64,000 nt of DNA from an uncultured delta proteobacterium (GTDB lineage: Bacteria > Myxococcota_A > Polyangia > Fen-1088): the NCBI GenBank assembly GCA_963737265.1, contig CAVTRY010000015.1, forward strand, positions 96,001 to 160,000, written 5' to 3'. Position numbers and translations under genes: made by a program. The notes under the pieces are model-generated. The model searched no databases. It saw nothing but the letters and a program-made list of their open reading frames with translations, and had not been told where the DNA came from. Shown here one piece after another: positions 12,054 to 25,767 of this stretch; the stretch's first letter is position 1; each line of letters opens with the position of its first letter.

Positions 12054-12194
12054 ATGGAGCTGTCCCGGCCCGCTCGGCGCCCACACCATGCGATGCAAAG
12101 CTGGGCCAAGCAAGCGCAATCCGCCGTGATAAGGTCGGCCGGTTGTTTGTCGTTCCTTTGTCACGACCACGAATCCAGAAATCTAGGAGGAACC

Positions 12195-12963
12195 ATGAAG
12201 ACTGCGCGAGCCTCGAAGCAACACCACCTCCGGGGATGGATCCCGGACTACCCCGATCAACGCGATTTTCTCTACGCCGATCTGCGCCGGGCGGTGGCGC
12301 CGCCGCCCCCGTCCGTCGATCTTCGAGCCGAGATGTCCCCAGTTGAAGATCAGGGCCAACTCGGAAGCTGCACCGCCAACGCGCTGGCTGGCGCGCTGGA
12401 GTTCCTGGAAATCAAGAACGGACAGCCGTACGTCGATCTCAGCCGTCTGTTCATCTACTACGACGAGCGCGTGATCGAACACACCGTCGCCACCGATTCG
12501 GGTGCCATGATTCGCGACGGGGTCAAGACCCTGGCGGCGCAGGGCGTGTGCTCGGAGAAGAAGTGGCCGTACGTCATTTCGACCTTCACCAAAAAGCCCA
12601 CCCCGGCGTGCTACGCCGAGGCCAAGAAGCACATGATTCGTACCTATCACCGCATTCTGACCCTCGACGAAATGCGCGGATGTCTGGCCGACGGTTTCCC
12701 TTTTGTCTTCGGTTTCACCGTCTACGAAAGCTTCGAAATCCGCGGCCGTGGCAAAAACCGGCGTAGTCAATATGCCGAAGCCGCGCGAAAAGACGCTGGG
12801 TGGACACGCGGTGTGCGCGGTTGGTTACGACGACAAGACCAAGCGCGTGCTCGTGCGCAACTCCTGGGGAACCTCGTGGGGAATGCAGGGCTATTTCACC
12901 ATACCCTACGACTACGTCGCGGATCGCAACCTGTCCGACGATTTCTGGACGATCCGCGCATAG
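12195..12963 (+). CDS. Papain-like C1 cysteine protease (one extra A near 12737 splits the frame)
   Basis: DQGQLGSCTANA in the first frame; GGHAVCAVGY and RNSWGTSWG in the second; removing one A restores YESFESAAVAK; strong RBS AGGAGG. Confidence 0.88.
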
Positions 12964-13033
12964 GCCGCGCATTCGCCTCAATCCACTCCCTTCCAAGAAA
13001 CGGGCTCGGGCTCGGGAACCGCGCGCGACCGGT

Positions 13034-13910
13034 ATGTGCGGCATCGACGAGGTCCGGGGCGTCGTGACGGGCATTACGACCAATCTTGGGACGACGGCCC
13101 TTCAGTCGTTGGTTTATGACTACGATGCCAACCTGAACGTGAAGAGTCGAACTGATTCCGTGGCGGGCGTGCTCGAGCAGTTCCACTACGACTCCCTCGA
13201 TCGGATTCACGACTGGCAAGAGGTGGGCTCCTATGGCTGGGGTGTGACCCATAGCCACGACGACATCGGAAACCTGACCGGGCGATCGTTGCTGGGCGGC
13301 AAGGGGGAAACCGAGGCGCTCACGTTCGAGCACAGCGGCGTAAACGCTGGGCCGCACGCCGTGACGACGTCGGCCTGGGGAACCTACGGCTACGATGGGA
13401 AAGGCAATCAGACGTCGTCGCCCGAGGGGACGATTGCGTACACGTATTTCAACTTGCCGAAGAGCATCGTTGGCACGGACACGTCCACCTTCAAGTACGA
13501 CGCGTCAGGCGCCAGGGTTCTGAAGTCGGCCGGCGCTACCGGAACGACGATCTACGCCGGGGGGACGTACGAACGCCGAACCGTCGCGGGCTCCAAGACC
13601 CATGTGTTCTATTTGAACACATCCGGGCGACAGATTGGGCAGATCCTGCGCAAGGAAAGCGACCAGAGCGAGACCGTCCTCTACATCCACAGCGATTCGC
13701 TCGGCTCGTCCGAGGTGGTTACGGACGCCAACGGACAAGTGGTTGGGGAGCGCCGGAAGTACGATCCCTTCGGTGCGCCCACGGACATCACCCTGCCCAA
13801 GGCATTCCCCGGTGGCAGCCTGATGAGTACCGACGTTCACATCGGCTTCACCGGGCACGAGGAAGATTCGGAAACTGGGCTGATCAACATGCGCGGGAGA
13901 ATCTACAACC
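13034..13910 (+). pseudogene. Rhs/YD-repeat fragment with truncated Rhs core
   Basis: YD repeats (YDYDANLN, YDSLDR, YGYDGKGN), H.D.LGS, YDPFG, GFTGHEEDSETGLINMRGRIYNP; no N-terminus and no normal core end or toxin tip. Confidence 0.85.
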
Positions 13911-13911
13911 C

Positions 13912-14286
13912 TCTGTCTTTCGGGCAAGCGGACCCGATTTTTTACCGGAAGCCGCTGAACGTTTTTCGGGAGTGTCATTCTCTCGCAAGAGCGAGCGCGG
14001 CAGCGTTGCCACGATGGGACGTTATCGGGGCCAACCAATTCCGTACGCCGCCGCCGAACTCATTGGCCCCGAGAGCAGCACGGATCTTCAGGTTCCAGAT
14101 GCTCCCTTTTTTGCAGCCATCGAAAGAGTCGCACCTGACTGTTCGGCCGCTGGAGCTACGCTGATGCTCTTTCACATGGACGTGGCATTCCGCGAGCAAT
14201 GCAACATTGAGCTGAGCCATGAGTTCGTGTCGGCTTTGGCTCAACTTGGAATCGGGATTACCATGTCTTGTTTTGAGGTGGCCTGA
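13912..14286 (+). pseudogene. Probable Rhs-associated immunity protein (DUF4279-like), N-terminus lost
   Basis: Frame open from ~13912 (SVFRASGPDFLPEAAERFSG...GRYRGQPIPY...CNIELSHEFVSALAQLGIGITMSCF); position within a toxin locus. Confidence 0.5.
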
Positions 14287-14362
14287 TTGAGAGCCCTGTT
14301 CGTCTGAAAAAAAGAGATGTCAAGGACCCAACAATTCATCCCGCCCAGATTCCGGTCTGAGC

Positions 14363-14689
14363 ATGAGCATGAAGTTTGATGGGGTCGCAAGCGCGATATT
14401 TGACCGAGCGTGCCCCGTACATGCCGGCGCGGGGGTGGTGCCGCGGGTGGGTAACCCCCAGTGGCGCGACGCCGGCAACTTCAATTGCGGATTCATTGGA
14501 ACCGCTCTTGGATACAGTCCGCAGATCTTACACTTCATGGCTGGAGCGCTGCAGATAGCTATGGGACATTCTGAGTTTCCTTGGGGCATGCCTGGCGAAC
14601 CTTTTTCACCGGGCAGCGATGGCCCTGTTGACTACTTCTGGATCGAACAAGGCATTGCGCTTGGCAATGCAGCTCGCGCAATGCCATGA
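14363..14689 (+). pseudogene. Orphan polymorphic-toxin tip, Ntox44-like (partial)
   Basis: DAGNFNCGFIGTALGYS..L...AGALQ and D.P.D.FWI.QG resemble the Ntox44 pattern. Confidence 0.6.
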
Positions 14690-15108
14690 AAGCATCGGTT
14701 TCCTTTCTTGGAGGGCTTGGGATGTGTCTTGTGGGGACAATCTTTGGCAGTTGTCGTCAGGGGCTGCTCTGCAATTCTACGGTTACGTCAGAAGTTCCCT
14801 CACCGAACGGTGCGTTCATTGCGGCCACGGTAGTCGAGTCATGTGGTGGCGCAGCTGGTAGTATTGGTACTTTGGTGGAGGTCAGGACGAGGGAAGGTTT
14901 CTGGGCACCATGGAATTGGAGCGTATTCAGGCTTGGGTGTGTGGGAACGCCAAGACTCCGATGGCGGCACAACCATCTTGCCATTGGGCTCACCAGAGCG
15001 CTGGCCGAGTGCGTCGTGCGAAGGGACTATGAGTGGAACGGAATCCCGGTGACCTACGACGACCTAGGCGGTGAGCCTGCCCCATCCTTACCACCGTTTG
15101 GCCTTTAG
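14686..15108 (+). CDS. Putative cognate immunity protein, membrane-anchored
   Basis: ATGA overlap with the toxin tip; N-terminal hydrophobic segment, SPNG..A.....CGGA motif. Confidence 0.55.
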   Translation: MKASVSFLGGLGMCLVGTIFGSCRQGLLCNSTVTSEVPSPNGAFIAATVVESCGGAAGSIGTLVEVRTREGFWAPWNWSVFRLGCVGTPRLRWRHNHLAIGLTRALAECVVRRDYEWNGIPVTYDDLGGEPAPSLPPFGL

Positions 15109-16232
15109 TGGGGAGCAATAGCCATGGTTACATCGGTCTCTGCGCAGACAGATCCCGTTCCGAGGGTAGTGTCCCAGATCCCCTTCCGAGGGTCATTCGG
15201 TCCCACAGCGGTCCGGAGAGTCGTTTCTGCATTTTGTTTTCCACCTGGCAACGGCATTTGCTTCAGCTCCGATTCGGCCCCCGGCGGCAGGCTGATTCTG
15301 GTTGACGGAGACCGCGCGCGGTGATCAGGCCGCGGTGGCCGCTTTGGGCTCGCTGGCGCCGGTGGCCTGGCTGGCCGCCGTGGCCACGGCTGCCGCAACC
15401 CCGACAACCTCATGCAGATCCTGTATTTCTCATGCTGCCACTGACCCTCGACGGAAGCTCACCCGAAAGCGTGATGGGCGCGAAAACTCCAGAAGCAATA
15501 CGGTCGGCACCTGTCCGGTTCGGTCTCTACCTTCTGGGGAGACGGACGACAAGTCCTCTTCCCATTGCGAAAAGTCCGTGCACACCCGTTCAAGATGGGC
15601 TGGCTAAAGAAACCTGACTTTGTGCCCAAAATCTTTGGAGAGCCCGGTGCACTCGAAAGTCTGAGCGAGTAAGGTTCAACGCTCCCGGGTACACGCGCAC
15701 ATAGTCGACGACCACGGACCACTACACCAGACCCCGAGTCTCTCCCACGTCGAGAATCCACAGGTCCGACTCCATGTGGCCTCGCTCGGCCCAGCGCTTT
15801 CTCAGCCGGTCGACAGGTTCCCGAATCGGTTCGCTGCTGAGGTTGAAAGTGCCCCAGTGCATGGCCACGAAACGACGAGCGCCTAGCATCTCATATGCGT
15901 CGACCGCCTCTACAGGATCCATGTGCTGGGCCTGCATGAACCAGCGAGGCGAATACGCGCCGATAGGAAGGATGGCGATATCGATGCTCGGAAACCGGGA
16001 TCGGACGGCCTGAAAAACCGCGGCTTGCAGGGCACTGTCGCCAGCGAAGTAGACGGTCACGCCGTCCGCCTGAAAGACCAACCCGCCCCAAAGGGTGCGA
16101 TTCCGGCTCGATAGGTTGCGCATCCCCCAGTGGTGGGCGGGGGTCAAGGTCATGCGAAGCCCTTGTCGATCAACGCTTTGCCACCAGTCAAGCTCGGTTG
16201 CTGGGCGGGGCAGGTGGCGGCCCATCTGCAAG

Positions 16233-17661
16233 CATAGGCATTAACCCAAAAACTTGCGATTTCTCCAAGAACGCCCGCATATGCTCGGGATGGACAACAT
16301 AGCGAAGGACAGCACCACGGGCGACTGGCCAATGATTGCGGCGCAGCTTCCATCCGGATGGGAGGATCTGGCGGTCGAGATGGGCGTGGTCTACACGAAG
16401 TTTCCGGCGCACATGGGCACGAAGGTGACCGAGGCGGCACATTTGCTGCAGCCGATTCTGTACCAGGTGGCGACGAACTCGTCGCTGGCCGTGACGGTGG
16501 CGATGGCGGCGGCGGCCGGGGTGATCAAGATGTCGGCAGTCGGGCTGCACAAGCGAATGAGAACCATTGGTCCCTACCTGGCGCGACTGGTGACGCTGAT
16601 GACGGATGCCGAGGCTTCGTTCGCAGCGGAGCGATGGGCGGGCTACGACGTGGTGATCGTGGACGGCTCTTCGGTGTCGCGGCCAGGAGCCGAGGGCACC
16701 ACGGCTCGCGTTCACTATGCGCTGCGCTTGAGCACGTTGCGGCCTGTGCAAATCGAGGTCACGGATGACAAGGGCGGCGAGACGTTCAGAAACTTCGATG
16801 CCGAGGCGGGACAACTGTGGATGGGCGACCGCGGCTACTCGAACCCGCCTGGCATAGCGGCGATCATGGCGGCGGATGCCGACGTACTGGTCCGATACAA
16901 CCGTGGCTCGCTTCCTCTGTACGGCATGAACGGGCAGCTACTCGACGTTCAGCGAATGCTGGCTCGCCTCAAGCATCCGGGGGTTGCACGCGAATGGTAC
17001 GCAGAGGTCCATCCGCAGGGTGGCAAGGCGATCGCTGGCCGGCTGTGCGCGTTGCTCTTGCCGCCCGACAAAGCAGAGGAGGCTCGGCAGCGCGCGCGAC
17101 GGGAACAAGGTCCGTCTGTGACTGAGGAAACCCTTGCGGCCGCGCAGTACGTGGTGGTGTTCACGACCGTACCGAGGTCGCGGCTGACCGCCGCCCTGGT
17201 CATGGAACTATACGGCCTCCGCTGGCAAATCGAGCTTCACATCAAGCGGGACAAATCCATCGCAGGGCTCGAACCGACTGCCCAACTTTCGCAACGACAC
17301 TGTCTATTCCTGGATTTGCGCCAAGATGCTGCTTACCCAGATCGCCCGCAAACTTGCTACACCCAACGTGGCTATTCCCCCCTGTGGAGAACTCGACTGG
17401 TTCGGCATCCGACGAGCCGCAGAAAGGCGTCAGGGCCGGACTCAGGCGATCAAAGCACCGGGTCGTAGCCGAGCCATGGCGTCTCATGACCGTCCTCTGG
17501 CAAACCGTATGCGCGGCGCTCACGCCGATCAGCGCCAGTCGGTTTCCCGATTTCTTGCAGGCATTCCTTGACCACCTTCAACTCCAAGTCCCGCGCAAGC
17601 GTCTACGCAGCGCCGTTAAGTTCCAGCAACATCTTGCGGAGGAATTGGGTTAATGCCTATG
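16233..17661 (+). mobile_element. IS4-family insertion sequence
   Basis: Perfect 17-bp terminal IR CATAGGCATTAACCCAA; 11-bp target duplication CCATCTGCAAG at 16222-16232 and 17662-17672. Confidence 0.93.
16281..17653 (+). CDS. IS4-family DDE transposase (frameshift near 17273)
   Basis: VIVDGS, MGDRGY, YGLRWQIE..IKRDKS (YREK motif); C-terminal extent uncertain. Confidence 0.85.
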
Positions 17662-18154
17662 CCATCTGCAAGGGCGCAACGATCTCTGGCTCGCCTTTGA
17701 GCTTGGCCAAACTGGGAAGGTCGAGGTGATCGAAGTGATCGTGAGAGAGAGCCACCAGGTCGATGAGAGGCAGTTGCTCAGGCGAAAGCCCGGGCGGCAC
17801 GTGGCGCCAGAGGGTTCCAGCCGGATGGCCGAACACCGGGTCGGTCAGAATCCAGCGGCCGCCCATGCGCAAGAGAAACGTGCAATGCCCTATCCAAGTC
17901 AGATGGGGCGCCTGGGGCGCCAGCGCGGCTGCTTGGTCGAGTCGGCACGGAGGCCTCCAGGATTTTCGCCGCCGAAAGAGATCGGCGAGGGCGGTCGCGC
18001 TCTGGCGCAACTCATCCGGCAATCGGCTCATGACCGCCCAGCGCAGGACTGCCAGTCCGCCCTTGTCGGGAGTTGTACCGTCCAGGTTCACGAATCGCCC
18101 ATCGACGGCCGGGGACCGGGTGCTCGCCGTGACGTCCGCCATGACCGCCGAAGC

Positions 18155-21100
18155 CTACTCCAGTCCAGGCGCCAGGACACGGCTGATGGCATCGGGATTG
18201 ACGATCCCCCTCTCGCTCATCCAGGCCCTTGCCGCGTTCGGGTCCAGATCGGCTGGCCCGCCTGCTAGATGCCGCCCGCCGGCGACGCGGGCGGCATGTG
18301 CCAGCAGCCAGAGGTTGTTCTGCTGCAACTCCCTCACGGCCGCGACCAGGCTAGGCTTGACGGCATGGGCGCGACCCTCCACCTCGGCCAGGCCGCTCGC
18401 GGTCACGAGCGCCAGTGCGACAGCCCACCTATCGGGCTGTCGCTGCATGCGTGCGATGAGCTGACGGGTTGCCTTGAGGTATCTTGGCCTCTCCTTGCCA
18501 CTCGACTGTTGCGCGGCGGCCAGGGCCGCGCGTGCTCGCAGATGGAGAGCCGCGATGCGCGTGTGTTGGATATGGAATACGCCCGAGCGACGCAGCTCGG
18601 CCCACCGGGCCCCTATCAAGTCGTACGCCGCGGGGCCATGGCCCAGGTACAGCTCCGTCTGAACCATCGCGATCAGGTTGTACCAATGTTGGACGTGGAA
18701 GCCTTGACGAGACCATCGCTCGATGGCCTGGTCGGTCTCGATCCTGGACCGAACAGGATCGTTCCGCATCAGCCAGACGAAGTTGGCGAGGCCGGTGCGG
18801 AAGTTGGTCGCGGCGTAGAGCGATCCGCGGTCGGTCGCCTGTCGCAGCCCGATGGAGATGAGTTGCTGGAAGGAGACGAGATCGCCCAGGTAGTACAGAT
18901 CCTCCATGAGGAACTGCCGGACGGTATCGAGTTCCCAGACCGCGCCGGCGCACTTCTGGGTGAACACCTTTTCCGCCACCTCCAGCTGTTCGCGGCTGCG
19001 CCCAAAATCGCCAACCAGGTGGGCGATCACCCCGGCCATCAGCAAGGTCACGCCGCGGGCGTAGGGATCGCCCAGCTTCTCAGCGATGCTCGATGCCTCA
19101 GCCAGCAGGCGATGGGCGCGCGCCAAGCCTGCCTGACCACGGCCCACGCACCACGCGGCCTCACCCGCCAGGCCCCGACTCACGCGAGGCAAGTCCTCCG
19201 CCTGCAACGCCAACAGTAGGCTGAGGGCTTGGAAGTACGCTCCCTTGATGGGATCAATGAGTCCGATGCCAGAAGACAGGGACCAGCAGAGGTCGATGCG
19301 TGCAGCCGTTTCCGCAGCCGGTGGTGCCGACGCCCCCGATCGACAGCGCAAGCCCCGCCAGCGCAGGCGCGCCCGCACCCACGCGAGGTTCGGCAAGGGG
19401 TGCCTGGGCATCTTCATGTGGGCCGCTGCCAGGGCGGTGCGCGCTACATCCATCCCCTTGTCGAAGTGACCGCTGCGCAAGAGCTCGCCGCTGGCCTTGC
19501 GGTGCAGCTCCAGCGACAAGGCTGCGTCGGCGCCCTGCGCGGCGGCAGCCAAGTACTGTTGCGCCGCCGCGAAGCCACGACCCGCGCAAGCCAGCGCATT
19601 GGCCAATTGGACCAGCAGATTCCCTCTTTGCTTGACGTCCCAGGTGCCGACCTTGAGTGCCATCTCAAAATGCTCGGCCGCGCGGTCAAAGGCCAACGCC
19701 TTCATCGCACGTTCGCCAGTGGCCACCAAATGACTAGCCGCCTTGCTGTCGTGCCCTGCCTCCAACCACAGCTCAGCCACCTGCGCAGGATCGCCATCGG
19801 CTCGGAAAGCGAAGGCCAAGCGCTCGGCCAGAACGCGCCGCCTGCTTGGGTCGAGTCCGCTCGACAACCAGACCCGCAATTGCTCGTGGCACAGCTCGAT
19901 TCGTTCCCGCCCCAGATCCCCGCTGGCATGGAGCAGACGCTCACGCAGCAGTTCCGCAACCAGTCGACTGAAGATCCTGGGCTCGATCTCGCTGGCTGTC
20001 TGCACGACGAGTTCCGGCACCGGCGCGCCCACCGTGGCGACCAGATCGAGGACAATGCGTGCTTCCGTTCCCGCCCGCTCCACGCGATCACGCAGCAGAT
20101 CGCTCAGGTTCAGACGCGAGGTTTTCAGGTCATGCGCCAGGGCGTAGCGGGCCAGCTCCTTGACAAACAGGGCATTGCCCTGCGTTGTCTCAGCCAGCGG
20201 CTCAAGTTCCAGCGTAGCCTGGCGCTCAAGCGAGAAGACCGACTGCAGCAGGGCCAACGTGGCGTCCCGATCAAGAGGGGGAAGCTCAATCCGAATCTGG
20301 CGGACAGATGGATCCAGCCAATCCGCGCTCGCCCGCCCGGATCCACGACAGGTTCCGAGAAACAGCATCCGGGGCAGTCGGCTGTCGGCTAGCAAAGCGG
20401 AGAACATGGCCAGGCTGTCGGCATCGGCCCACTGCAGATCGTCGACGAAGATGACCATCGGGCTGGCGCCGGTGATCGCGGCCAGAGCCTCGCGCAGCCC
20501 ATCGAGCAGGCGGCTGCGCAGCTCGTGAGGGTCCGACGGGATCTCGACCGCACTTGCGACGGTGACTTCGGGTATCTGCTCCAGAGCTGGAAACAAGTGG
20601 CGCAGCAGCGGTGCGATTGCCGGAACCAGAACCGCGCGCGCGCCGGGGGACATTTGGCCCACCTGGTGGGCAAGTTGGTCGATGACACCGTCGAGGGCCT
20701 TGAAGGGCAGGAACTCGCGCTCGTGGCAACGAGACGCAACCACGGTGGCCCCCTGTTCTGTCGCCAACGCGTCGAGAAACTGTCGGCATAGCTCGGTCTT
20801 TCCGATGCCGGGCTCGCCGGTGACCAGCAGGGCGACTCGGTCTCCGCCAACCGCGTCCGAAAACGCCGAGCGCAAGGTCGCCGTCGGGCCAGATCGCCCG
20901 AACAGAGGGCTGGTCCCTGCCCGTGCTTGGCGCGCCCCCCACGCGGGGTCGCCCGGCGCGCCCAGGGCCTGCAGGATCGAGCTGGGATCGGGTCTCATGT
21001 CGGGTTCCCTCGCCAGCAGGATCTCGCACAGCTCGGCCAGCTCCGGCGGTACTTCCGGATCTCGCTGGCAAACGGGCACGGCAACTTCGTGCTGCTTCTT

Positions 21101-21871
21101 GTATAGAATCTCGAACGCATGGCCATCAAAGGGCAGCACCCCGGTCAGGGCCTCATACAAGATCACGCCAAAGCTGTACCAATCGGCCGCGGGCGTCGGC
21201 GGTTCGAACAAGGCCTGTTCTGGCGCCATGTAGGCGGGCGTGCCGGCTCCGAGAAACGTCGTCCGAGCCTCTCCCTCTGTCGCTAGGCCGAAGTCGAGAA
21301 TGACGACCCGACCCTCGGGTGTGACCAGTACGTTGGTCGGCTTGATGTCTCGGTGAACCTGGCCCGCGTTGTGGATGGCGGCCAGACCCTGGGCGAGTTG
21401 CGAGAACGTCTCACGCACGCAAGGCTCGTCGAGGGTACCGCGATCCTGGGGCGGTCTGTCCGGAACGGCCTGTCTGGGGCCTCGCATGGTTGCACCGTCT
21501 CGGTCGGGCCGACCAACCGACGGCACGTGCGCCGCACCCGCGATTCCACGCACGTGCGAAAGCAAATCCACGCCATGGACAAGCTCCATCGTGAAAAACC
21601 AACGCTCACCATCAGAAAAAAGATCCCCGAAACGCACGACGTTGGGATGGCGGATATTGGCCGCTGCACGGAACTCTTTCTTGAACCGGCGAAGAAGGTC
21701 GGGCTGCAGCCCGGGAAGCAGCTTGAGCGCTACGCGAAGGCCTAGCTCGCTGTCCTCCGCCTCGTAAACCACTCCCATGCTTCCTTGTCCGAGCAGACGA
21801 ACCAGGTGGAAACGCTCAGTCCCACGAAAACGGACCGCTCGGACTTCGCTAGGAACCTCACTTCGAAGCAT
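18155..21871 (-). CDS. Ser/Thr protein kinase fused to AAA ATPase and helical/TPR region
   Basis: LGQGSMGVVY, VALK, HRDIKPTNV, DFG, GTPAYMAPE; Walker A GEPGIGKT, Walker B IFVDDLQWAD. Confidence 0.92.
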   Translation of the reverse strand: MLRSEVPSEVRAVRFRGTERFHLVRLLGQGSMGVVYEAEDSELGLRVALKLLPGLQPDLLRRFKKEFRAAANIRHPNVVRFGDLFSDGERWFFTMELVHGVDLLSHVRGIAGAAHVPSVGRPDRDGATMRGPRQAVPDRPPQDRGTLDEPCVRETFSQLAQGLAAIHNAGQVHRDIKPTNVLVTPEGRVVILDFGLATEGEARTTFLGAGTPAYMAPEQALFEPPTPAADWYSFGVILYEALTGVLPFDGHAFEILYKKQHEVAVPVCQRDPEVPPELAELCEILLAREPDMRPDPSSILQALGAPGDPAWGARQARAGTSPLFGRSGPTATLRSAFSDAVGGDRVALLVTGEPGIGKTELCRQFLDALATEQGATVVASRCHEREFLPFKALDGVIDQLAHQVGQMSPGARAVLVPAIAPLLRHLFPALEQIPEVTVASAVEIPSDPHELRSRLLDGLREALAAITGASPMVIFVDDLQWADADSLAMFSALLADSRLPRMLFLGTCRGSGRASADWLDPSVRQIRIELPPLDRDATLALLQSVFSLERQATLELEPLAETTQGNALFVKELARYALAHDLKTSRLNLSDLLRDRVERAGTEARIVLDLVATVGAPVPELVVQTASEIEPRIFSRLVAELLRERLLHASGDLGRERIELCHEQLRVWLSSGLDPSRRRVLAERLAFAFRADGDPAQVAELWLEAGHDSKAASHLVATGERAMKALAFDRAAEHFEMALKVGTWDVKQRGNLLVQLANALACAGRGFAAAQQYLAAAAQGADAALSLELHRKASGELLRSGHFDKGMDVARTALAAAHMKMPRHPLPNLAWVRARLRWRGLRCRSGASAPPAAETAARIDLCWSLSSGIGLIDPIKGAYFQALSLLLALQAEDLPRVSRGLAGEAAWCVGRGQAGLARAHRLLAEASSIAEKLGDPYARGVTLLMAGVIAHLVGDFGRSREQLEVAEKVFTQKCAGAVWELDTVRQFLMEDLYYLGDLVSFQQLISIGLRQATDRGSLYAATNFRTGLANFVWLMRNDPVRSRIETDQAIERWSRQGFHVQHWYNLIAMVQTELYLGHGPAAYDLIGARWAELRRSGVFHIQHTRIAALHLRARAALAAAQQSSGKERPRYLKATRQLIARMQRQPDRWAVALALVTASGLAEVEGRAHAVKPSLVAAVRELQQNNLWLLAHAARVAGGRHLAGGPADLDPNAARAWMSERGIVNPDAISRVLAPGLE

Positions 21872-21937
21872 GGACTTCCTATGCCGGGTTGGGATCTCGC
21901 CGCTGGATCCAACTAGGGATCAATGCGCAGCTGTCGT

Positions 21938-22570
21938 TCACGTATCCGCAGCCGTGAGCCGCCCACGCAGCTCGAGCTGTTGGCCATTGATTAGATCGGC
22001 GGGTGAGGCGTAACACGGCAACTCAGGGGCCAGCGGAAAACCAGCCTTTCGGTAAGCCTCGGCCACCAGCTCCGAACAGAACCAGCGCTCGGGTTGCCTG
22101 AACGGCCGCCGCAAGCAAAAAATCACGGCAAGGGCAAACCGCACCAGACCAATCATGTCGTACGGGAGCGACAGTTGTTGGAATCCAAAGTCAATCGCCG
22201 TCTCGCGGGCCGGTTCGGATGCCGCCAGACCGCAGTAGAAGATGCCGTCCGGGTAGTGATCGAGCAGCCGCGATACAGGAGCCAGCCGCACCCCCTTGCC
22301 CACGGCCTCAAGACAGTAGACACGGTCGTGATAGCGATACAGGATTCCCGCGTGCGAGTACTCGCTGTGCGTGAAATTCCGGATGAGCCAGCTCAACAGA
22401 CCGCAGCCGCAAAACAAAAGCACGTCCCCGCTGCGCATCGAGGCGCGGATTCCTTTCGCCTGTCCCGCGAAGTGCTCAAGGGGCTTCTCACCCGCGCTCG
22501 CGATGAGCGCACGTGCCTGCTTCCCAGCCTCGCGTCGAAGCCTTCGACGTTCCCTGAGTCCACCTTGCAT
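21938..22570 (-). CDS. Permuted papain-like NlpC/P60 enzyme (YiiX/YebB-like)
   Basis: GDVLLF, YSHAGI (His before Cys), EAV, PYD, WFCSELVAEAY, SPADL. Confidence 0.85.
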   Translation of the reverse strand: MQGGLRERRRLRREAGKQARALIASAGEKPLEHFAGQAKGIRASMRSGDVLLFCGCGLLSWLIRNFTHSEYSHAGILYRYHDRVYCLEAVGKGVRLAPVSRLLDHYPDGIFYCGLAASEPARETAIDFGFQQLSLPYDMIGLVRFALAVIFCLRRPFRQPERWFCSELVAEAYRKAGFPLAPELPCYASPADLINGQQLELRGRLTAADT

Positions 22571-22744
22571 GCGCGAAACCTACCGCTGTCCTGGCCCGGT
22601 GTGAAGCCCCTTCATTTTCCACCCGTGGTGTCCGGAAAGTTATCGCTGAACCCCGCGCCATGGACATCATGACGCGACAACAAGGCCGTTGGGCGCGGAG
22701 AGCCATTAGCGAATGGCGAAGAGTAGCGGCATGGTCAGGAACCG

Positions 22745-22951
22745 TCAGCCGGCGAGTAGCAGGCGCCGCGGCTCGGGTTTCGCGTCGGAGGTGTGGGCCG
22801 CGGTCAGAAGCCCGAGCGCGGCGTCGAAGTGGTGGCGCGTGATGGCGACGCCATCGTTCGCTTCGCCAGTGCCAACAGCGTCCTTGACGCAACACATGGC
22901 GGCTCGCTGGCAGAAATACGCGATGTCCGCGCCGGTCATGCCCTGGACCAT
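22745..22951 (-). pseudogene. C-terminal lid fragment of an AAA+ ATPase (Cdc48/FtsH-type)
   Basis: GMTGADIAYFCQRAAM...ITRHHFDAAL; no Walker motifs upstream. Confidence 0.65.
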
Positions 22952-23209
22952 CTGGCCTCGGATTCAGACTACCAGCACCGGTTTTGCAAAAATTTCTCTT
23001 GCAATTCTCTCGGTTTCGATCCACGAAGCCCTGCTGCCGGTCTGTCGGTCTATGAGAGTGGTTTGCTCTTCCTGAACGGCGGGGCCGCGGCACCGAAGGT
23101 CGGCGAAGCTGCCGACGATGGAAGAATCTATTCGGTGGTCGAGCCCTTGGAGAAGGGCATCGTCTTCTACGAGACGAACTAGCGAGGTGTCCCTCCACCC
23201 ACGCGCAGC

Positions 23210-25488: not shown

Positions 25489-25767
25489 TTACCACGGTCT
25501 TGACCACGGTGGTCGCGCGGTTCATGCTTTTCCCTGGGCCTTCTGCACGGTTCGACACCCGGACGAAGTTTCTTTTCCCTACAAGCAAAAAATTGGGAGC
25601 CGCCTCCGACCGATGGAATGAGCACGCCCGCTAGAGTCGGGAAGCCCGATGCGGTCAATCAAGTGGTTCCCCCCTACCATGGTAGGGGTCAGGACTCATC
25701 CGAACGGCCGAGGCGGAAGGTCCGCTATTCATAGCGCGTGCTTCGCCCGCAACCCAGCCGCTGACAT

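Follow-up and report, generated by a model that had tools for sequence, protein, structure and literature searches.

Conserved linkage between genes for a kinase-STAND-TPR protein and a permuted NlpC/P60 (C92) enzyme in one family of Polyangia

The mycobacterial kinase PknK has a kinase-ATPase-TPR architecture. Kinase-STAND-TPR proteins are abundant in myxobacteria, where, to our knowledge, no ligand is known for any of them, and the logic of a kinase working with an FHA activator is known in Myxococcus. For the STAND protein MalT, ligand-triggered oligomerisation has been described, and two enzymes, MalY and Aes, keep its activity in check or adjust it (PMC10427625, partial text). In the PknK-VirS-mymA system, the kinase phosphorylates the neighbouring regulator and operon enzymes, and proteins of the mymA operon have been proposed as PknK substrates (PMC3544749, partial text). 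The permuted papain-like enzymes of the YaeF/YiiX (C92) family, in turn, are represented by the structures of BcPPNE (PDB 3kw0) and Escherichia coli YiiX (2if6), which have in common a permuted His...Cys order together with Glu and Tyr; a role as lipid-amide amidases has been proposed for them (PMC3142127, partial text).

We analysed a 64,000-nucleotide stretch of DNA (the window) from an uncultured delta proteobacterium of the Polyangia (genome G000), whose nearest relatives with names are Myxococcales MAGs. As the original prediction, made from the letters alone, had described, it contains three co-oriented genes with gaps of 66 bp and 12 bp, all on the minus strand (Table 1). The families named there (permuted NlpC/P60, kinase-AAA-TPR and NAPE-PLD-like) agree with Pfam, profile and fold matches; the heading of that prediction did not say that the third gene is interrupted here. 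The three-gene block, flanked by a C1 peptidase gene and an N-acetylglutamate synthase-like gene, had also been assigned to an accessory region with gene debris, and the comparison with relatives bears this out: in 4/4 same-genus genomes fetched the flanks are kept, the content of 12967-23200 is absent with nothing between these positions in common, and a vWA-domain gene occupies the corresponding site. We looked for this vWA-domain gene in G000 and did not find it. The debris includes an Ntox44-like ORF (14363-14689), whose score falls short of the Pfam cut-off, and another, small ORF (14686-15108) without an assigned family; together with the Rhs-core fragment, and with the small ORF as a possible immunity gene, it has the appearance of the remains of a polymorphic toxin cassette. 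The nearby insertion-sequence remnant we take to be ISL3-like. Two further observations concern the surroundings. The C1 papain-like peptidase gene (12054-13067) is seemingly frameshifted relative to the same-genus copies, possibly through an assembly error, and a 6S RNA gene lies at 25537-25723.

Table 1. Features of the three-gene block and its immediate surroundings (positions in the window).
Feature	Position	Strand	Basis
Debris with a piece of an Rhs core, an Ntox44-like ORF and a small ORF without family assignment	12967..15108	+	ORF list, Pfam, same-genus comparison
Remnant (107 bp, one end) of a second insertion sequence, 1.5 kb long and multicopy	15379..15486		
NAPE-PLD-like gene, 3' part including target duplication copy 16222-16232	15722..16232	-	
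IS4-family insertion sequence splitting the hydrolase gene	16233..17661	+	
NAPE-PLD-like MBL-fold gene, 5' part including target duplication copy 17662-17672	17662..18142	-	
Ser/Thr kinase + STAND NTPase + TPR-like sensor, 1238 aa	18155..21871	-	Pfam, model, motifs
Permuted papain-like NlpC/P60 enzyme, YaeF/YiiX (C92) family, 210 aa	21938..22570	-	Pfam, alignment, fold
Promoter-like 40-bp motif immediately upstream of the C92 gene	22571..22610	-	Kept in 8/8 clade-A upstream regions aligned, two identical

The middle gene encodes a kinase domain (residues 21-301) in which the Gly loop, Lys, HRD, DFG and APE motifs of Hanks-type kinases are all present, an AAA_16 STAND domain (residues 322-504; 88.5 bits against a cut-off of 32.6) with intact Walker A and B motifs and, after these, a helical-repeat region; no transmembrane segment was found in the protein. 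With a predicted model of the STAND-TPR part (pLDDT 88.5), the top fold match was the TPR-sensor STAND 6mfv (E 4e-11), followed by matches that include Avs3, Avs4 and Apaf-1 and, lower in the list, MalT-MalY (8bob). Among the 150 best kinase representatives, none is fused to a C92 enzyme or to the hydrolase.

The product of the first gene matches Peptidase_C92 (E 8e-12; 46 bits against a Pfam gathering cut-off of 27), and an Atlas search returned the same family membership and nothing further. His73, Glu88, Tyr137 and Cys165 correspond to the C92 catalytic set and are invariant across 36 aligned sequences; His and Cys are retained in the kinase-linked C92s displayed. Profiles matched 3kw0 with E 2e-20 and 2if6 with E 9e-11, the TM-score to 3kw0 being about 0.7, and the NCBIfam scores lie below the cut-offs for a YaeF or YiiX equivalog (61.9 against 279 and 37 against 216). 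No signal peptide is evident, and a hydrophobic helix spans residues ~135-153. The LRAT/PLAAT acyltransferases belong to the same permuted fold superfamily, are expected to have a hydrophobic acyl pocket and carry an NCEHF-type signature motif; the window enzyme instead carries FCSEL, gave no LRAT family match at E 0.05 and folds like 3kw0 and 2if6, so that the caveat of the original prediction, YiiX-like rather than PLAAT-like, was well placed. The enzyme could still be an N-acyltransferase, because LnsA is a bacterial permuted enzyme that acts in this way (PMC13559823, partial text). By analogy with its relatives, the small C92 enzyme probably acts on lipids. As a separate observation, a TerB-like domain is fused to C92 in one genus of another Polyangia family (L232:6954-8543, L235:6679-8268, L237:3017-4612).

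We found that the first two genes are linked well beyond the window. The window kinase falls into a single clade (26 tree rows, SH-aLRT 95), and a C92 gene lies within 12 kb on the same contig for 20 of the 28 kinases of this clade, compared with 0 of 65 other kinase-STAND-TPR loci, fragments at one place having been merged for this count. The 28 comprise the kinases of 25 genomes from the tree and three frameshifted copies assigned by synteny. The eight misses are four loci cut by contig ends, G011 and G064, where C92 (in G011 a remnant) lies on another contig beside the kinase 5' end, and two genomes (G101 and G107) without a neighbouring C92. The pair occurs in five genera and in four gene orders: C92 co-oriented upstream of the kinase (G000 and genus g11), upstream with an activator gene between (g16), divergent (g2), and downstream after an activator gene (G020). 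The positive cases come mostly from one genus and are not independent; since the C92 loci fetched from other families of the class gave no STAND or TPR match, they probably reflect two or three independent pairings, not twenty. One further lineage is represented by four metagenome contigs, in which a distant kinase-STAND-TPR gene (26-31% identical) is followed directly by C92; a search for this distant clade-D kinase in the genomes gave no locus.

Viewed from the enzyme, the linkage is less strict. A genome search with PF05708 was too insensitive (6/89) and was replaced by one with alignment A3 (33/89), which contains kinase-adjacent C92s and is therefore biased toward them. Among the 46 C92 loci of the family, 26 lack a clade kinase on their contig within 12 kb, in part because the contig ends. 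The closest C92 relatives, from Acidobacteria and other Polyangia, stand alone. For the class outside this family, 23 C92 loci were fetched, and neither these nor the acidobacterial sister loci gave a STAND or TPR match. A second, related stand-alone kinase (40-44% identical mutually) adjoins C92s of three clades at L120, L209 and L227.

The C92 partners themselves fall into clade A (the window), clade B (g2) and clade C (g9 and g11), and represent at least two subfamilies. In quick trees of 59/131 sequences, with groups named after the first tree seen, AU tests rejected the monophyly of A+B+C (p 0.0003) and of A+C (p 0.003), and did not reject that of B+C (0.16) or of A+D. Because the kinases form one clade and their C92 partners do not, these results suggest that the C92 partner has been replaced in place.

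Such a pattern bears on the possibility that C92 came to lie next to the kinase in one or two events and has simply been inherited along with it, with the kinase signalling through FHA-sigma54 activators only and the three genes functionally independent. In favour of this possibility, G000 has as many as 61 kinase loci, msrAB and a GH8 gene keep their place in the g2 neighbourhood as steadily as C92 does, and C92 has been lost from G101 and G107 and survives in G011 as a remnant. Nevertheless, the linkage has outlasted several rearrangements, at ~40% kinase identity and with different C92 subfamilies, and none of the 65 paralogous kinases has a C92 neighbour. We regard mere hitch-hiking as rather unlikely.

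The sequence upstream of C92 is also conserved in clade A. The 40-bp motif before C92 (Table 1) resembles, judging by its letters, a -35/-10 promoter of the sigma70 type from which a leaderless mRNA would start; a scan for strict consensus promoters before C92 found none. TTGACA precedes the kinase in 4/4 clade-A relatives shown and is absent in the window, and because the window kinase lacks it, read-through from the putative C92 promoter into the kinase is plausible. In contigs assembled from sequencing runs, long RNA pieces were found on the insertion sequence only, and the IS-free joint was not seen. A sigma54 site before the C92 gene was also considered and rejected, with a single weak match among 20 upstream regions.

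For the pair, then, we observe the two architectures, intact catalytic motifs and conserved gene linkage. Our main reading, to which we give a probability of about one half, is that a MalT-like STAND receptor kinase is coupled to a C92 enzyme in this one family of soil myxobacteria. If it works as MalT-type STANDs do, a ligand at the TPR sensor would bring about ADP/ATP exchange and STAND oligomerisation and so turn the kinase on. The C92 protein, to judge from YiiX and BcPPNE, would be a cytoplasmic, membrane-associated acyl-amide hydrolase or acyltransferase, and it could meet the kinase in one of three ways: it may make or remove an acylated ligand and thereby set its level; it may control the STAND protein directly, as Aes and MalY do with MalT; or it may be a phosphorylated output of the kinase. 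The FHA-sigma54 activator encoded beside the kinase in relatives would be the likely transcriptional output, and the NAPE-PLD-like gene would be a widespread hydrolase gene that, in a single small clade, came to rest downstream of the kinase, and that was inactivated here. All components belong to known families, and their pairing is apparently undescribed: we found no account of a kinase-C92 pair in the literature searched (main texts, few subscription journals) or in the available part of PMC8195603. For YaeF/YiiX enzymes, structures exist and the substrates are proposals; the conserved pairing supplies a testable partner both for these enzymes and for the myxobacterial kinases and, if true, would connect an NLR-like receptor with the chemistry of acyl lipids. 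A more ambitious version, in which an NLR-like kinase receptor repeatedly recruited permuted papains for an acyl-lipid switch or membrane attack and one sub-lineage added the hydrolase for N-acyl-lipid turnover, seems to us doubtful.

It is less probable still that the pair serves in NLR-like defence, with the TPR region sensing an invader, the STAND domain oligomerising and the kinase activating C92 as a membrane-damaging phospholipase. The presence of Avs3 and Avs4 among the fold matches would fit such a role, as would the finding that Tox-Act1, a permuted NlpC/P60 toxin, is a phospholipase (PMC12994826, partial text). The kinase clade is patchy in g1 and g16, the window site is variable and holds Rhs debris, toxin-antitoxin genes flank three loci, and in P0218 a g2-type C92 (57% identical, catalytic Cys lost) is fused to a TIR_2 domain. 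That fusion, however, was a singleton in the searches made, with no genome locus found; the g2 neighbourhood is stable and metabolic; and the kinase family is common, occurring in 277 of 401 genomes of the class (class tallies, this one included, count two unpublished genomes, on which none of our conclusions rests). PADLOC returned only the generic kinase domain and matched neither C92 nor the two hydrolase pieces, and most of the neighbouring genes scanned are not defence genes. We see little sign of the membrane attack upon phage sensing that the original prediction had offered as its second option.

In the window the hydrolase gene (Lactamase_B_2) is present as two ORF pieces (17657-18142 and 15722-16231) on either side of an IS4-family element with 15-bp terminal inverted repeats, an 11-bp target duplication and 10 full-length copies in the genome; once the element is removed, the frame is open for 326 aa. 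One extra base (17272) breaks the transposase frame of this copy; it is also present in one other genome copy, missing from eight, and absent in the contigs of four sequencing runs. The HxHxDH and downstream metal motifs of NAPE-PLD-like enzymes are kept, and an intact relative of the hydrolase aligns with human NAPE-PLD over its full length (E 2e-49); the bacterial relatives are presumably RomA-like hydrolases. All but one of the 89 family genomes (88) carry a homologue, and further homologues are spread over many phyla. At most loci scanned in genus g2, the sister hydrolase has a gene for an aminoacyl-PG-synthase C-terminal domain on one side and an efflux system on the other, a hint that the hydrolase family deals with lipids, though not that it is linked to C92. 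At L337, L338, L340, L344 and L348, we noted a conserved order in which the gene for the aminoacyl-PG synthase C-terminal domain is followed by a small kinase gene (optional), the hydrolase and then outer-membrane efflux genes; this may point to aminoacyl-lipid turnover.

Conservation of the trio, which the original prediction had named as its own test, failed: the three genes are contiguous in 1 of 89 family genomes (G000 only) and lie within 14 kb of one another in 3 of 89 (G000, G082 and G077), plus the metagenome locus L121. In G082, G077 and L121, C92 is separated from the kinase by an opposite-strand FHA-sigma54 activator gene, usually with a STAS gene, and by up to several kb more. An orthologue of this activator is absent in G000, where the best match is 48% over the ATPase part, and the contiguity in the window may or may not reflect a recent deletion of the activator: C92 lies directly before the kinase in G011 and genus g11 too, while the activator is present at L122, a clade-A locus that branches deeply. 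The hydrolase comes after the kinase in 4 of 28 clade members (G000, G082, G077 and G083), and in G011 its orthologue lies on another contig from the kinase. There, the gene after the kinase, in the place of the hydrolase, is a weak nucleotide-cyclase-like ORF (L018:1572-2561). Across the 80 best hydrolase loci outside the family, no C92, STAND-TPR protein or kinase was found within 8 kb, and at 20 family loci no C92 lies beside the hydrolase, with another kinase nearby in five and an AAA_16 protein in two. Where the clade kinase is present (29 genomes), 23 genomes also have a close hydrolase somewhere, compared with 16 of the 60 genomes that lack the kinase, a difference to be read with the fact that 18 of those 23 belong to one genus and that g9 and g11, whose kinase-C92 genomes have no hydrolase in the top group, break the pattern. 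Of the three-gene link, therefore, the kinase-C92 part stands, and more widely than had been noted, whereas the part that concerns the hydrolase does not: its association with the kinase is confined to a single small clade, and it never adjoins C92 at the loci examined elsewhere. The best reading is that the hydrolase gene is a passenger, a recently added neighbour of the pair. An operon under the control of the kinase, with C92 producing N-acyl-PE and the hydrolase freeing an N-acylethanolamine messenger from it, would matter more, yet it is not supported and we hold it to be very improbable: the kept NAPE-PLD-like motifs, the four loci with all three genes within 14 kb, the plausible read-through and the genome-wide co-occurrence are outweighed by the single contiguous case, the absence of C92 from hydrolase loci, the placing of the hydrolase in another conserved locus in g2, its broken state here, and a C92 enzyme with FCSEL and no LRAT match.

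We return, finally, to the coupling of a receptor kinase to C92 and to the systems it most resembles. The hydrolase has its motifs in common with human NAPE-PLD (4qn9), and its gene is IS-broken in the window. With the antiviral Avs STANDs the window kinase shares the STAND and TPR layout; it matches no PADLOC model beyond the kinase domain, and the neighbours scanned form no defence-island context. The C92 enzyme differs from BcPPNE in that the lysine-binding acidic pair Glu67/Asp68 is not conserved in the alignment, and it adjoins a kinase-STAND gene, whereas the available part of PMC3142127 mentions no kinase or STAND partner for BcPPNE or YiiX. The PknK system, likened here by description rather than by sequence comparison, belongs to another phylum and has other partners. 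With MalT and the PH0952-type STANDs, the window protein has in common a STAND core and a TPR-like sensor, and it differs from MalT in its output, which is an N-terminal Ser/Thr kinase in place of a DNA-binding domain.
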